This document shows, piece after piece, positions 59,421 through 63,930 of a stretch of DNA of 64,000 nt. Under the pieces are notes generated by a model that was given only the letters and a program-made list of their open reading frames with translations, was not told the DNA's origin and ran no database searches. Where the stretch lies: the sequence record PV544171.1. One strand, 5' to 3'. Position 1 is the stretch's first letter. The number at the start of each line of letters is the position of its first letter. The stretch comes from Enterococcus phage AllMyExes. Made by a program: the position numbers and the translations under genes.

Positions 59421-59522
59421 ATGAGTGTATACAGTTTAAAATTACTAGCAATCTTAGGGATAGTATTATTCTTTTCAGTTATCGGGATAGTGTACGATAA
59501 TAAACAGGACGAAAAGAAATAA
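59421..59522 (+). CDS. Small hydrophobic peptide (33 aa, single TM), below ORF-track cutoff
   Basis: It reads MSVYSLKLLAILGIVLFFSVIGIVYDNKQDEKK. It lies 4 nt after the upstream stop. Confidence 0.35.
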   Translation: MSVYSLKLLAILGIVLFFSVIGIVYDNKQDEKK

Positions 59523-59559
59523 ATATATAAAGAGGTAAAGAGATAAGGAACTATAGAAC

Positions 59560-59800
59560 TATAAAACTATATACACTTATAGGGGAAGAGATGGAGGAGG
59601 GGAGGAGGTAAAGGAAAGAAGAGGGAGAAAGAAAGCAATAAGGAATAAGGCAATAAAGAAAAAAAGTTGTTTACCTATATACTTATACACCTATGTACCT
59701 ATATACAGATAGCCACTAACAAGCAATAGTAAGGGAATAAAGGAATAAGAGAGAGAGGAAAGAGGAAAGAGGAAAGAGGAAAAAAAGTTGTTTACCTGAG
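59560..59800. repeat. Polypurine (A/G-rich) tract with (aggaaag)n repeats and two copies of 'aaaaaagttgtttacct'
   Basis: The plus strand is nearly pyrimidine-free: ...ggaggaggggaggaggtaaaggaaagaagagggagaaagaaagcaataaggaataaggcaataaagaaaaaaagttgtttacct ... gagagagaggaaagaggaaagaggaaagaggaaaaaaagttgtttacct. Confidence 0.8.
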
Positions 59801-60341
59801 ATTTTAAAGAACCGACCTCATCAGAAACCCGACAAGGGGGCGCATAAGTCTATTTCAAAATAATCTGAAATAAGTATAGTTATTACTGTTTATAGATGAT
59901 TATCCTTAAATATCTGAAAATAGGGGCGTTTATCTTATTATATAGTTAGCTATCTTACACTATTAATCATCTAGCCTATTACTGCATTCATTGCTATTAT
60001 ATTCTATATAGGGAGCGCTTATACTGTTTATAGTGTAATTATGAGGGGAACGGCTAGGAACGCTTATACGGGCTTATAGGGGGCTTTAAATGCATAGGCT
60101 ATTTATACATATATTAGAATACACAAGGAGGAGGGGCAGAAAGTTAGTAGGTTAGACTGTTAAAAACAAACGGGGGCTAGATGCACATTGTTATTTTACT
60201 GATTGAGTTAGGTTAGCTAGCTAAAATAAGAATGCTATTGTAGCAACGTTTATAAGAAATAGGGGTGTACTTTTCCCCTAGGGAGGTTTTAAAAGGGTAT
60301 AAAATTCTTTTGTTATTTAATTAAAAATTTCATCTTAGCTA

Positions 60342-60405
60342 TTGACTTTTAACAATAACTATTGTATAGTTAACTTGTAAGATAAAGAGAGGGGAAAACT
60401 TAAAA
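60342..60405 (+). promoter_or_regulatory. Early promoter + conserved leader repeat (TTGACT variant)
   Basis: It reads ttgacttttaacaataactattgtatagttaacttgtaagataaagagaggggaaaacttaaaaATG. Confidence 0.6.
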
Positions 60406-60672
60406 ATGAAATTAAAAGAATTTATCAAACTAGCAGAATCAAAGGGCGCTACATTAGAGGCATATAACGAGCTAGGAGGTTATGAACTAACTAGAGGGGA
60501 CATAGTAGACCAGAATCCCGTTTTAATTGCTTACATGCAAGGGACTCACAGCGTAGAAATATCAAACGAGGAACTAGAAAACAAAGAGTTAACAGAGCTA
60601 GCGTTTGTCTATAAAAATGCAAGTTTTATTTATCCAAACGAAAAAGAATTATTGTCAGGACTAGGACTATAG
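60406..60672 (+). CDS. Hypothetical small early protein
   Basis: An 88-aa ORF. Confidence 0.5.
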   Translation: MKLKEFIKLAESKGATLEAYNELGGYELTRGDIVDQNPVLIAYMQGTHSVEISNEELENKELTELAFVYKNASFIYPNEKELLSGLGL

Positions 60673-60769
60673 CACAACGGCGTATAAAGCCCGTAACTAA
60701 GTTTTAACGGGCTTTATATATAAATACATTATGAGGGCTTATAAGGGCTTATGAGGGGGACTAATAAGA

Positions 60770-60937
60770 ATGCTAGAGGTGGGCAAATTTGTACGAGGTA
60801 ATAACGGCGCAAGAACTTGGGTGGGTCAGATTGTAGGTATAGACAGGCTAGCGGGGGAATATCGTGTGCGTGACGTTGTAACAGGAATATACTTTTATGT
60901 ATCTTGTAGCGCTGTTTATGAATGCGCTAGACCATAA
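60770..60937 (+). CDS. Small hypothetical protein (55 aa), below ORF-track cutoff
   Basis: The RBS gaggggg is followed by an ATG. It reads MLEVGKFVRGNNGARTWVGQIVGIDRLAGEYRVRDVVTGIYFYVSCSAVYECARP. Confidence 0.4.
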   Translation: MLEVGKFVRGNNGARTWVGQIVGIDRLAGEYRVRDVVTGIYFYVSCSAVYECARP

Positions 60938-60968
60938 AACATTTAATAAAAAAATTTCATCTTATCTA

Positions 60969-61030
60969 TTGACTTTTAACAATAACTATTATACAATAGG
61001 TTTATCAGATAGAGAGAGGAAGTTACAAAC
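60969..61030 (+). promoter_or_regulatory. Early promoter + conserved leader repeat (TTGACT variant)
   Basis: It reads ttgacttttaacaataactattatacaataggtttatcagatagagagaggaagttacaaacATG. Confidence 0.6.
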
Positions 61031-61207
61031 ATGGAATACAACACATTAGACGAATTACTAGAAGAGGAATACAGCACACTAGACGAATTGCTAGACAGTG
61101 AAGAATTTAAAAAACAAATGAACAACCTTAATCACGTTCCGCAAATGCAACCGCAAAGCCACAACAGCAATACGCTAGCAGACACGGGACGTTATCCAGA
61201 AAAATAA
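61031..61207 (+). CDS. Small acidic protein (58 aa), below ORF-track cutoff
   Basis: It reads MEYNTLDELLEEEYSTLDELLDSEEFKKQMNNLNHVPQMQPQSHNSNTLADTGRYPEK and has an internal TLDELL repeat. Confidence 0.45.
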   Translation: MEYNTLDELLEEEYSTLDELLDSEEFKKQMNNLNHVPQMQPQSHNSNTLADTGRYPEK

Positions 61208-61286
61208 AATTGAAAAAAAAGGGGTTGACAAGTTCAGCCCCTAATGATATACTAGGTACATAAGATAGATAGGGAGGAATTTTATA

Positions 61287-61421
61287 ATGACAATCGAACA
61301 GATTAACGCAGAAGTAAAACAACAAGAAATGCTTGGTAACAAATTAGAAGTAATTCAGTTAGGTAATGATATTTACATGTATATTAACGGTGAACCATAC
61401 AAAACAATCGAATTAATTTAA
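61287..61421 (+). CDS. Small protein (44 aa, N-terminus MTIEQ), below ORF-track cutoff
   Basis: The RBS is tagggagga. A paralogous start lies at the 61502 gene. Confidence 0.4.
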   Translation: MTIEQINAEVKQQEMLGNKLEVIQLGNDIYMYINGEPYKTIELI

Positions 61422-61439
61422 AAAGTTTCATCTTTTCTA

Positions 61440-61501
61440 TTGACAAATAACAACAGCTAGTATATAATAGGTTTATAAGATAAAGAGAGGGAGTTATTAC
61501 T
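61440..61501 (+). promoter_or_regulatory. Early promoter + conserved leader repeat
   Basis: It reads ttgacaaataacaacagctagtatataataggtttataagataaagagagggagttattactATG. Confidence 0.6.
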
Positions 61502-61660
61502 ATGACAATCGAACAAGTGAAAGACTACGGCAAAGCATACGGAAAAGAGCTATCAACTAAGGAAGTAAAAGAATTTTTTGAGAAACACAACGACATGCCT
61601 TCACTAATGGACTTAGCAAAGTTTTGCGGGGCAATGAACGAGGACGGAACAAAAAATTAA
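61502..61660 (+). CDS. Small protein (52 aa, N-terminus MTIEQ), below ORF-track cutoff
   Basis: It reads MTIEQVKDYGKAYGKELSTKEVKEFFEKHNDMPSLMDLAKFCGAMNEDGTKN. Confidence 0.45.
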   Translation: MTIEQVKDYGKAYGKELSTKEVKEFFEKHNDMPSLMDLAKFCGAMNEDGTKN

Positions 61661-61670
61661 AAAAAAACTA

Positions 61671-61794
61671 TTGACAAATAACAAAACATAATGTAATATA
61701 ATAAGTGTAAGAGGGAAAGGGTTAAACCTAAAAAGGAAAATGAGTACTTCTTTCTTACACAATACATATCAGATAAAGAGAGGAAGTTATTACT
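61671..61794 (+). promoter_or_regulatory. Early promoter + leader carrying an inserted hairpin (gtgtaaga...tcttacac)
   Basis: TTGACA is at 61671. About 55 nt of extra leader sequence with an 8-bp inverted repeat precede the conserved ...atcagataaagagaggaagttattactATG. Confidence 0.55.
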
Positions 61795-62034
61795 ATGACG
61801 CCAGAACTAGCAGAAATGAACCTAACTAAAAATGATAGCCCATTTTCGTTTATTAATGAATCAGGTGTTTTCATTGAACCGATTAAGAACCCGTTTTCTT
61901 GTGAGGGTACTTATTTACAAGCTTGTAAGGACGTAGCGGGAGAGCTAGAAACAAATAAAGAGGTAGGGAACGAAATCGACAACTATTTAAAAATGCAGAA
62001 TTGGCTAAATAAGTTAGCATATGAATATATTTAA
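61795..62034 (+). CDS. Hypothetical small early protein
   Basis: A 79-aa ORF. Confidence 0.5.
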   Translation: MTPELAEMNLTKNDSPFSFINESGVFIEPIKNPFSCEGTYLQACKDVAGELETNKEVGNEIDNYLKMQNWLNKLAYEYI

Positions 62035-62052
62035 AAAGTTTCATCTTTTCTA

Positions 62053-62113
62053 TTGACAAATAACAACAATTAGTATAATATAATAGGTGTAAGAGAGAGG
62101 GAGGAATTTCATA
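62053..62113 (+). promoter_or_regulatory. Early promoter + conserved leader repeat
   Basis: It reads ttgacaaataacaacaattagtataatataataggtgtaagagagagggaggaatttcataATG. Confidence 0.6.
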
Positions 62114-62338
62114 ATGAAATCAATTATCATCAAACAAATCAAGGACGGTTACAAAGGCATTTTAGAACGTAGGAACAACGGTTGGGCAGATGAGGAACTA
62201 AACAGCTACACAACAGGCGTAAGCAATACACTATTCGAGCTTATAAACGACTTACAAGACAATGGTGTTATCAGTGAAGAGGAAGCCGAAGAAATCGAAG
62301 AAGTATTTTCAAACACTATCGATATATTAAATTTTTAA
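62114..62338 (+). CDS. Hypothetical small acidic early protein
   Basis: A 74-aa ORF. Confidence 0.5.
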   Translation: MKSIIIKQIKDGYKGILERRNNGWADEELNSYTTGVSNTLFELINDLQDNGVISEEEAEEIEEVFSNTIDILNF

Positions 62339-62347
62339 ATAAAGTTA

Positions 62348-62435
62348 TTGACAAAAAACAATAACTAGTGTAGTATAATAAGTGTAAGGAGGAATAAACC
62401 TCTTTACACCACACAACAGAAAGGAAGTTTTTACT
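62348..62435 (+). promoter_or_regulatory. Early promoter + leader with inserted hairpin (gtgtaaggagg...cctctttacac)
   Basis: TTGACA is at 62348. The -10 is gtgtagtataat. The hairpin precedes cagaaaggaagtttttactATG. Confidence 0.55.
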
Positions 62436-63131
62436 ATGACAGAATGGGCAAACATGAATAAAGAAGAGGTACTAGAATTACTTAATGATTGGTTTGGCGT
62501 TAGTGACTATGATACAGTTATGGAAGAAGCAGAAGAGATGAAACAAGTCACCTTTACAGGTAGCACAAACCGACCTTTATTAGGTGGTAACAATGACTTA
62601 ATCGGTTTACCTCAATTCTTTAAAGACAATGAAGCAGAATCAGAGTTCCCAACTTATGAAGAATTACTAGAGGAACTAGAGAAAGATACATGGAATCTTG
62701 AAGCAGAGGACAACACTTATAACTACGGCGGTTTCTTAGAACGTGAAATGGACTTTAAAACTATTCAGGCAGAAAATTCAGACACGACTATTGCATTCTT
62801 TGCAATCCATACGGGGGTAGATGTGAGAGCGGGCTACTCAAAAGCAATCCCAGTTATTTTTGAAACTTATTACGATTTTCAAGAGTTCCTAGGTAACTAC
62901 TTTTATAGTCAAGGTTACTATGCTTTTAAACACGACAACAAGGAATACACAATCAGTTTAGATGTTTCGGCTACCTCGGAATATGTACGAATTTATATAA
63001 CTGATAATAATAACAACGAGTTACAACTAGACTACGAACAAGAAACTTGTATGGACTTAGACAAAGAGAGCGTAGCAGAATACCTGACTAGCCAAGGAAT
63101 TGAGTTTAAAGACTTGAAACCTGCATTGTAA
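62436..63131 (+). CDS. Hypothetical acidic early protein
   Basis: A 231-aa ORF. Confidence 0.5.
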   Translation: MTEWANMNKEEVLELLNDWFGVSDYDTVMEEAEEMKQVTFTGSTNRPLLGGNNDLIGLPQFFKDNEAESEFPTYEELLEELEKDTWNLEAEDNTYNYGGFLEREMDFKTIQAENSDTTIAFFAIHTGVDVRAGYSKAIPVIFETYYDFQEFLGNYFYSQGYYAFKHDNKEYTISLDVSATSEYVRIYITDNNNNELQLDYEQETCMDLDKESVAEYLTSQGIEFKDLKPAL

Positions 63132-63237
63132 CCATATAAGGCACTAGGGAGCTTATACAATAGAGCTACAAGCTTCCTAGTGTAATTATAAGGTAAATAA
63201 CTAGAAACGCTTATACGAAAGAATAGGGGGCTTTAAA

Positions 63238-63486
63238 ATGAAGTTTAAACGAGCAATCGAGGAATTGGAAGAGAAAGAGGGAATCACCTTAGAACCAGAA
63301 TATAACGGGGTATATACAGTTAAGGGCTACTATTCTAACTTAGAGGTATTACATTGTAGCGACTACGATGAAGAATATAATAACGAGGAACTAGAGGACT
63401 GCCATTTACATGAACTTGTATTCAGGTATGAGGGAGAGCAAGCATATAAGAGCGGATATTATGAACTGCTAAAATTATTGAGTTAA
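63238..63486 (+). CDS. Hypothetical small acidic early protein
   Basis: It is 82 aa. It is preceded by the alternative leader aacgcttatacgaaagaatagggggctttaaaATG. Confidence 0.5.
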   Translation: MKFKRAIEELEEKEGITLEPEYNGVYTVKGYYSNLEVLHCSDYDEEYNNEELEDCHLHELVFRYEGEQAYKSGYYELLKLLS

Positions 63487-63490
63487 TCTA

Positions 63491-63562
63491 TTGACAAAAA
63501 ACAAAAACTTTGGTATTCTATATTTGTAAGATAAATAAAACAAATGAAAGAGAGTGTTAAGA
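63491..63562 (+). promoter_or_regulatory. Early promoter + leader (family member)
   Basis: It reads ttgacaaaaaacaaaaactttggtattctatatttgtaagataaataaaacaaatgaaagagagtgttaagaATG. Confidence 0.5.
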
Positions 63563-63712
63563 ATGGAAACTAACAAAGCATATGAAAGACTATTGAAAGA
63601 AGTAGAACTATTACAAAATGATTTAATGGATATTGAAGACTATTCAGAAGAGGTTTACCAAGCTTTCCAGAAAGTAATTGACGAATTAGAATATGTGATA
63701 GAAGAGGGATAG
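63563..63712 (+). CDS. Small acidic protein (49 aa), below ORF-track cutoff
   Basis: It reads METNKAYERLLKEVELLQNDLMDIEDYSEEVYQAFQKVIDELEYVIEEG. Confidence 0.4.
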   Translation: METNKAYERLLKEVELLQNDLMDIEDYSEEVYQAFQKVIDELEYVIEEG

Positions 63713-63930
63713 ACCGATATTATAGGACTAGACCATTTGACCTCCCCCCGTGGTTTTTTGACCGTACTTTGGGGGTGGGGCTATTTGCCTACCCCGACCC
63801 TCGGGTACCTATTTTTTCTAGGAAAATTATTTTTTATATATTTAGAAAGTCAACACCCTACATATAAAGTCAACATAAGGGCTCACCCTAGGGCTCCTAT
63901 ATAGGCTCACCTAAATACCGCCATATAAAA

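Follow-up and report, generated by a model that had tools for sequence, protein, structure and literature searches.

The boundary of a long direct terminal repeat (DTR) is a genome landmark of a kind that is already known, and it is annotated in close relatives of Enterococcus phage AllMyExes, from which the DNA analyzed here stems (sequence record PV544171.1, a stretch of 64,000 nucleotides that we call the window). The phage is EF24C-like (Kochikohdavirus, Brockvirinae, Herelleviridae), and 37 Kochikohdavirus records match the region under study, positions 59523-60405, at 90-96% identity. Among the Brockvirinae, the repeat of KEN04 measures 2,849 bp by PhageTerm (PMC11360260), the ends of the Schiekvirus iF6 were mapped by RAGE and restriction (PMC10054541), and PhageTerm end coordinates were published for another Schiekvirus, phage 163 (PMC9860891). 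As far as we found, the papers on the repeats of EF1TV, KEN04, phage 163 and iF6 do not describe the purine tract in front of the end or the repeated motif reported here. Based on homology to these relatives, 59523-60405 is very probably the concatemer-junction region that straddles the left boundary of the long DTR of AllMyExes.

Other phages offer further comparisons. In Twort-like phages (Kayvirus) the long terminal repeats are flanked by 12-bp inverted 'bracket' repeats, TAAGTACCTGGG and CCCAGGTACTTA, according to passages in PMC7596081, PMC6022877 and PMC4111496 that cite Lobocka 2012. In the Kayvirus record MN047438 we located the cut at TAAGTACCTG|GG on the left and, on the other strand, on the right, with four extra TAAGTACCTT copies upstream in G-poor TAC/TATTAC repeats. 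SPO1-like phages of B. cereus have the ends 5'-AGGTTTT... and ...CTACCT-3' (PMC5418689). In SPO1 itself (NC_011421, last 350 nt; L021, 310-663) the unique region ends in about four tandem units of ~61 nt, the last two identical. These units contain CCTTACCTGAGG, which resembles the boundary core of the Enterococcus and Staphylococcus phages; they show no purine bias, and the cut context is a different one (...GGGACCCT|GTCCCG).

At the concatemer junction of T7, short-repeat arrays termed SRL and SRR reportedly adjoin the 160-bp terminal repeat. Inspection of the T7 sequence showed CCTAAAG arrays next to this repeat, and promoter A1 (498) is preceded by ~500 bp of non-coding leader. The AllMyExes locus is similar: arrays of 7-8-nt repeats adjoin a non-permuted terminal repeat, and roughly 500 bp of non-coding leader separate the end from the first strong host-type promoter, which is located at 60342, at a distance of 544 nt. 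However, there is no sequence similarity, the repeats differ in size (160 bp versus 4 kb), and the T7 arrays are 50% purine and lie on both sides of the repeat, whereas the array in the window is found on the left only. Repeat arrays and iterated cut-site-like motifs beside a terminal repeat are thus a recurring and known theme.

Boundaries of the terminal repeat

The original prediction, made from the letters of the window, had suggested that the region may mark a genome end if it corresponds to a terminal redundancy as in SPO1, and the comparison with relatives bears this out. The records of EF1TV (MK268686), ENP2309 and A155 all begin at the homologue of 59799 (AGATTTTAAAG); EF1TV is annotated with a left and a right direct repeat, of which the right one starts at a base that aligns to 59799 as well. 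The Ef2.3 record begins 10 nt inside the repeat. At the opposite side, EF1TV and ENP2309 terminate in ...GGGGCTATTTGCCTACCCC(T/G)ACCCT, the homologue of 63801, and the right-end sequence ...GGGGCTATTTGCCTACCCCGACCCT has a unique match in the window, which ends at 63801. From the starts and ends of the EF1TV and ENP2309 records it follows that the repeat of the window would comprise 59799-63801, or 4,003 bp.

Evidence independent of the EF1TV, ENP2309 and A155 record starts comes from KEN04, phage 163 and iF6. In the KEN04 record the distance from TACCTG|GGATTTT to CCCCGACCCT| is exactly the published 2,849. The mapped ends of iF6 start with AGATTTTC and finish with ...GACCCTC; the PhageTerm coordinates of phage 163 give AGATTTTCAAAAG as the start, with the same first bases as iF6, and ...GACCCT as the finish, so the Schiekvirus ends mapped by RAGE or PhageTerm open with the same AGATTTT. 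In EF1TV, KEN04, phage 163 and iF6 alike, the left AGATTTT... and the right ...GACCCT are homologous to those of the window, and the layout is the one seen here, in which the repeat contains plus-strand early genes behind sigma-70 promoters and the strand switches immediately beyond the right boundary. The repeats of relatives range from 1,911 to about 5,800 bp (1,911, 2,849 and 4,515 bp among them), and the 4,003 bp of the window differ from these because the small-gene cassettes differ. A Logan contig that begins at TG|AGATTTT gives weak and ambiguous support for the left end. Position 59799 thus corresponds to the first base of virion DNA, which is established in close relatives and would apply to AllMyExes by homology.

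The spacer in front of the repeat terminates in A7GTTGTTTACCTG, which abuts the physical end. The two motif copies noted in the original prediction are indeed present: the exact 19-mer GAAAAAAAGTTGTTTACCT occurs at 59658-59676 and 59779-59797, the copies lie 121 nt apart, and nothing similar is found elsewhere in the 64 kb. We compared spacer and motif among 15 Kochikohdaviruses, this window among them. The G at position -1 of the terminal copy is invariant in all of them, and the internal copy is missing in six and present twice in ECP3. Put differently, six phages have one module of purine microsatellites plus A6-9 GTTGTTTACCT, eight (including the window) have two, and ECP3 has three. Internal copies invariably read TACCTA with TACCTATA repeats behind them, and the copy adjoining the repeat invariably reads TACCTG with (A/G)GATTTT behind it. 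The upstream copy is a dispensable paralogue that arose by the 121-nt tandem duplication.

An inverted counterpart of the motif is found at the right boundary, and the cut context in the window is TTTACCTG^AG for the left boundary (top strand) and AAAAAATAGGTACCCG^AG for the right boundary (bottom strand). The composite boundary motif occurs in the 64 kb at these two places only, on the plus strand at the left and on the minus strand at the right. The same arrangement is seen in Kayvirus, where the motif likewise directly precedes the left boundary on the top strand and directly follows the right one in inverted orientation, and the position of the cut relative to the core is as in Kayvirus 515A1. 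The core TACCTG is shared (LG1 and the KEN phages even have TACCTG|GG), and in both groups extra upstream copies are set in short tandem repeats and altered at the base beside the cut, from G to T in Kayvirus and from G to A here. However, the shared sequence is limited to 6-8 nt, the arms are imperfect here (TACCTGAG versus TACCCGAG), and the Kayvirus spacer is G-poor (TAC/TATTAC, 37% purine) instead of purine-rich. Perfect 12-bp bracket repeats are absent at the window boundaries, which carry the core only (TTTACCTGAG on the left and, on the minus strand, GGTACCCGAG on the right). As judged from its placement, the boundary motif would work like the Twort-like bracket family without being a sequence member of it. 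The same layout, with purine microsatellites and two ACTACCT copies, is found in Revolver, whose first 80 nt are only 78% identical.

A possible mechanism would start from replicating concatemers in which one copy of the repeat lies between successive genomes. The terminase would recognize two sites, the left one as ...TACCTG^AGATTTT on the top strand and the right one as AAAAAATAGGTACCCG^AG on the bottom strand, and would cut or nick opposite strands at the two boundaries. Strand-displacement synthesis from both 3' ends might then copy the repeat, and each packaged genome would carry it at both ends. Duplication of a repeat by opposite-strand nicks and strand displacement is the Watson/T7-type scheme. 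The conserved leader of ~540 nt together with seven sigma-70-type promoters would fit a leading end that recruits host RNA polymerase early.

Table 1. Positions of the features at and around the two repeat boundaries in the window
Feature	Position	Strand	Description or basis
Last gene of the right genome arm	59421-59522	+	33 aa, phrog_29866; annotated in relatives; its stop is the start of the gene-free stretch
Pre-terminal spacer	59523-59798	+	276 nt, 74% purine, patchwork of 7-8-nt microsatellites
Purine block 1	59575-59667	+	87% purine; 26-nt pure run at 59610-59635
Internal motif copy	59658-59677	+	GAAAAAAAGTTGTTTACCT then A (TACCTA), within the 121-nt tandem duplication
TACCTATA repeat block	59672-59711	+	8-nt repeats, always 3' of internal motif copies
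Purine block 2	59721-59787	+	92.5% purine; 41-nt pure run at 59747-59787; (AGAGGAA)x4 at 59754-59782
Terminal motif copy	59779-59798	+	GAAAAAAAGTTGTTTACCTG; final bases of the non-redundant genome, adjacent to the physical end on its 5' side
Direct terminal repeat	59799-63801	+	4,003 bp, single collapsed concatemer-like copy; assigned by homology to relatives' ends
Terminal 31 nt	59799-59829	+	AGATTTTAAAGAACCGACCTCATCAGAAACC; 20/31 identical to Schiekvirus iF6, first 7 identical
Non-coding leader at the left genome end	59799-60340	+	columns 94-100% conserved, 2 gap columns, 15 phages
Gene-less copy of intergenic leader element	60031-60090	+	80% identical to 63178-63237; ends in ATG with a 21-aa open reading frame only
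First of seven repeated sigma-70-type early promoters	60342-60370	+	TTGACT-17-TATAGT
Inverted counterpart of the boundary motif	63800-63817	-	AAAAAATAGGTACCCG^AG; putative cut between 63801 and 63802

Several points weigh against this interpretation. The end of AllMyExes would be assigned by homology to relatives, and some of their record starts may have been copied from earlier records and not measured. The composite motif was defined after both sites had been seen, so its rarity is biased. Because the bare core TACCYGRG is not rarer than chance in the window, we base the inverted-motif argument on position and on recurrence across genera and not on statistics. The left boundary of the Schiekviruses has AACCCC instead of TACCTG. 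To our knowledge, the nicking polarity and the strand-displacement copying have been demonstrated for no Herelleviridae phage. Two sequences also lack parts of the junction. A metagenome contig (L028; ENA ERZ28514750 NODE_1149; 2380-2400) joins ...GGAATAAAGGAA straight to TGAGATTTT; at the level of the letters, ...GGGAATAAAGGAA runs directly onto TGAGATTTTAAAG, without the second (proximal) purine block and the A7GTTGTTTACC motif. The contig represents a natural deletion variant or else a misassembly; if the join is real, the proximal purine block and the motif would be dispensable and recognition would take place inside the repeat. Phage 149 (vB_EfaH_149, CAJDJZ010000002.1; L034, 620-700) is devoid of the whole left junction and of the first 79 nt of the repeat, and another small gene and promoter cassette is fused at the homologue of 59878; its left end would therefore lie elsewhere, or its assembly is rearranged.

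A cos site was considered and rejected: relatives carry direct repeats of 1.9-4.5 kb at both record ends, contrary to short single-stranded complementary ends, and the term 'cos' in the KEN04 paper (PMC11360260) is loose usage. The Carl record (ON113167) terminates at the homologue of 60339, just 5' of the first early promoter, and the Riverwalk record (PV544179) at the homologue of 64000. These are probably arbitrary linearization points in a genus that has been deposited inconsistently. An exact-match scan of IMG/VR with a 24-mer of the junction gave no match.

The purine-rich spacer and competing explanations

The observation behind the original prediction was partly confirmed: it is real for the most part, with some counts and extents overstated. 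The gene-free nature of 59523-60405 held, since no open reading frame (ORF) of at least 38 aa is found in any frame; the largest one is of low complexity, 37 aa long and on the minus strand, and the next real gene downstream starts at 60406. The claim that 59560-59800 consists almost entirely of A and G does not hold, as purines make up 74%. The stretch has two purine-dense blocks (87% and 92.5%), which are separated by a stretch of TACCTATA repeats with 44% purine (59678-59720), which accounts for the lower overall value. The microsatellite units of the spacer are AAAGAGAT, GAACTATA, AGGGGAGG, AAGGAAT, TACCTATA, TAAAGGAA and AGAGGAA; the reported aggaaag repeats are found as three tandem AGGAAAG units at 59756-59776 plus one further copy at 59612. 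The pure purine runs of 41 nt (59747-59787) and 26 nt (59610-59635) are the two longest in the window, where ~6e-6 runs of at least 41 nt and ~0.02 runs of at least 26 nt are expected by chance, and the region is the top purine peak of the window at every window size tested.

Among the 15 Kochikohdaviruses the spacer is hypervariable, with lengths of 183-436 nt and 68-82% purine. In iF6, phage 163 and Revolver a tract of 74-81% purine is found immediately upstream of the homologous end, with 81% directly 5' of the end in both iF6 and phage 163. The composition of the spacer and the TACCT motif beside the end are kept across Brockvirinae, whereas the sequence and length of the spacer are not. 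The purine bias appears to be specific to Brockvirinae, and a literature search on polypurine tracts at phage terminal repeats yielded nothing relevant. Most likely the spacer is an auxiliary or tolerated element, the sequence and length of which are free to drift by slippage. As a genome-end landmark, then, the junction 59798/59799 and the TACCTG motif stand, and the purine tract as such does not. A scan for promoters and terminators found no terminator between the last gene (ending at 59522) and the end at 59799, and promoter-like matches in the spacer were not above chance. A replication origin was rejected as well: the cumulative GC skew climbs steadily across the region and does not switch before the strand changes past 63700.

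It might be possible that the boundary is real and that neither the purine-rich microsatellite tract nor the additional motif copy serves a function, both being debris of slippage and unequal crossover in the sole non-coding gap beside a site of repeated nicking and priming. The drift in spacer length and the one, two or three motif modules, found in phages that are ~95% identical next door, speak for it, as do the variable copy numbers of the repeat units, the metagenome contig without the second purine block and motif, and the presence of repeats without purine bias at this site in Kayvirus and SPO1. However, 74-81% purine persists directly 5' of the end in Schiekvirus and Revolver despite non-alignable sequence, which suggests selection or a persistent mutational bias, and the G at -1 of the terminal copy does not vary. 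We therefore consider this explanation a serious but doubtful one.

Explanations that assign the region another role fare less well. The gene-free 0.9 kb might encode a non-coding RNA or a regulatory leader unrelated to genome ends, as the leader of ~540 nt is strongly conserved without coding capacity and a promoter-like site lies on the minus strand (59966-59937). This is unlikely: Rfam covariance models gave no match at E<=1, the folding z-scores of the 542-nt leader (-1.0 and -0.2) are no better than shuffles, promoter-like matches number 23 against a shuffle expectation of 17.7 +/- 4.6, and the coincidence with mapped termini explains the location.

The suggestion that the homopurine tract forms an intramolecular triplex (H-DNA), which would mark or open the junction for the packaging or replication machinery, draws on an uninterrupted purine-pyrimidine run of 41 nt that lies 11 nt from the cut and on the conservation of the purine bias in Brockvirinae. 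The run is no more mirror-symmetric than shuffled sequence, though: its best mirror arm is 9 nt with one mismatch, against a mean of 10.7 in the shuffles, 465 of 500 of which were at least as good, so the H-DNA suggestion of the original prediction gains no support. The tract sequence is not conserved, the number of units varies, the tract is missing from Kayvirus and SPO1, and no single-strand structure is predicted to be favored at the left boundary. When the DNA around the two boundaries was folded, nothing exceeded shuffles, apart from a weak 5-bp palindrome at the right cut. An H-DNA function is accordingly quite improbable.

Another explanation takes the tract as the DNA-phage analogue of a retroviral polypurine tract (PPT), in which a purine-rich sense-strand tract 5' of the 3' long terminal repeat abuts the upstream edge of the terminal repeat. 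At the sense-strand end of the right-arm transcription unit, read-through would produce a hybrid of purine RNA and pyrimidine DNA, an R-loop resistant to RNase H, and the RNA 3' end near TACCTG would prime strand-displacement copying and set the left edge of the repeat. This would be a long shot, although, if true, it would account for the position of the purine tract, precisely on the 5' side of the repeat edge, in three lineages of Brockvirinae. In its favor, the upstream genes have the purine-rich strand as their sense strand, the lack of a predicted terminator would permit read-through, and the geometry is that of the retroviral PPT-U3 junction. Against it, the Kayvirus counterpart is pyrimidine-rich and G-poor on the same strand, while the metagenome contig does without the proximal tract. 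Moreover, this is a DNA phage without reverse transcription, the tract is much longer (70-130 nt) and variable, and the A7GTTGTTTACCTG between tract and cut is not purine-only, so that we rate priming of this type as very unlikely.

Least credible of all is that the starts of the records and the annotated repeats reflect convention or software artefacts, with the real ends located elsewhere: many Kochikohdavirus records are circular or start elsewhere (Carl ends at 60339), and the orientation of A155 and ENP2309 might have been adjusted to that of EF1TV, but both boundaries fall on homologous bases although repeat lengths differ (1,911, 2,849 and 4,515 bp), the iF6 ends were mapped at the bench and share the terminal sequences, and the phage 163 coordinates agree.

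Leader, promoters and small genes of the repeat

Within the junction region that we assign to the left repeat boundary, the non-coding leader is the most uniform part, and divergence among the 15 phages begins past its ~540 nt, at the first early promoter. Against iF6 only the terminal 31 nt and the promoter/leader are still alignable, and in the leader at the left end it is the terminal 31 nt alone; these are a probable recognition sequence of the terminase. The short direct repeats noted downstream of the tract are fragments of a repeated intergenic leader element (family D6). Two copies of cgcttatac are present in 59523-60405 as claimed (60016 and 60061), with a third at 63208. Three copies of gggcttata exist as well, but only one (60070) lies within the region, the others being at 60735 and 60745. 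The element usually precedes the 82-aa gene at 63238, and the copy at 60031-60090 is followed by a 21-aa ORF only (60090-60155). This copy resembles what remains of a lost gene cassette, in a leader that is otherwise invariant.

Seven copies of a 49-nt promoter cassette with TTGAC(A/T)-17-TAnnnT are found at 60323-63520, before the small early genes of the repeat. The cassettes (49-85 nt) are laid out as AAAAATTTCATCTT..CTATTGAC..TAACAA..TAtAaT plus a purine-rich leader and a ribosome-binding site. Gene content between them varies among relatives, with the repeats spanning the lengths given above, and the promoters resemble joints at which recombination shuffles the cassettes. No Pfam match was obtained for the flanking genes or for those of the repeat, which fall into PHROGs families of unknown function only; a tRNA search gave no match either. 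In the last small gene of the repeat (ORF 63554-63712, 52 aa), positions 63560-63705 are 92-94% identical at the DNA level to unrelated Enterococcus siphophages of ~56 kb (EFap05-1, KEN17 and VD13), which suggests a recent horizontal exchange across phage families. Inside a 58-aa ORF (61031-61207), positions 61033-61095 hold a 33-nt tandem duplication that stays in frame (1.9 copies, 90% identical).

The right boundary (63741-63820) is the most pyrimidine-rich plus-strand spot of the window (27.5% purine in 40 nt), mirroring the left boundary. It carries G/C blocks, GGGGGTGGGGCTAT, that are also found in the right ends of Schiekvirus and Kayvirus. A leftward promoter, TTGACT-16-AATAAT, with the motif AAAGTCAACAC is located at 63826-63853 on the minus strand, 25-50 nt beyond the right boundary. 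As AAAGTCAACAC is conserved in Kochikohdavirus, iF6 and Kayvirus 515A1, a divergent transcription start by the repeat edge is a family-wide feature.

Implications for Herelleviridae genome ends

With genome ends that can be placed, by comparison with relatives, at 59799 and 63801, a correct linear annotation becomes possible for a genome in which the assembly has collapsed the repeat. The ends of Kochikohdaviruses can be described by a sequence rule, ...TACCTG|(A/G)GATTTT ... GACCCT|, which matched the published length to the base in the single case that could be checked (KEN04). Phages of this group have therapeutic uses, and for the risk of transduction it matters that their ends are defined and sequence-specific.

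The natural allele series described here, with one to three motif copies, G or A at -1 and a possible tract-less variant, provides ready material on what a terminase of long-repeat phages reads. Taken together, the termini of Brockvirinae, Twort-like phages and SPO1-like phages of B. cereus hint at one conserved logic of terminase cut sites across Herelleviridae.

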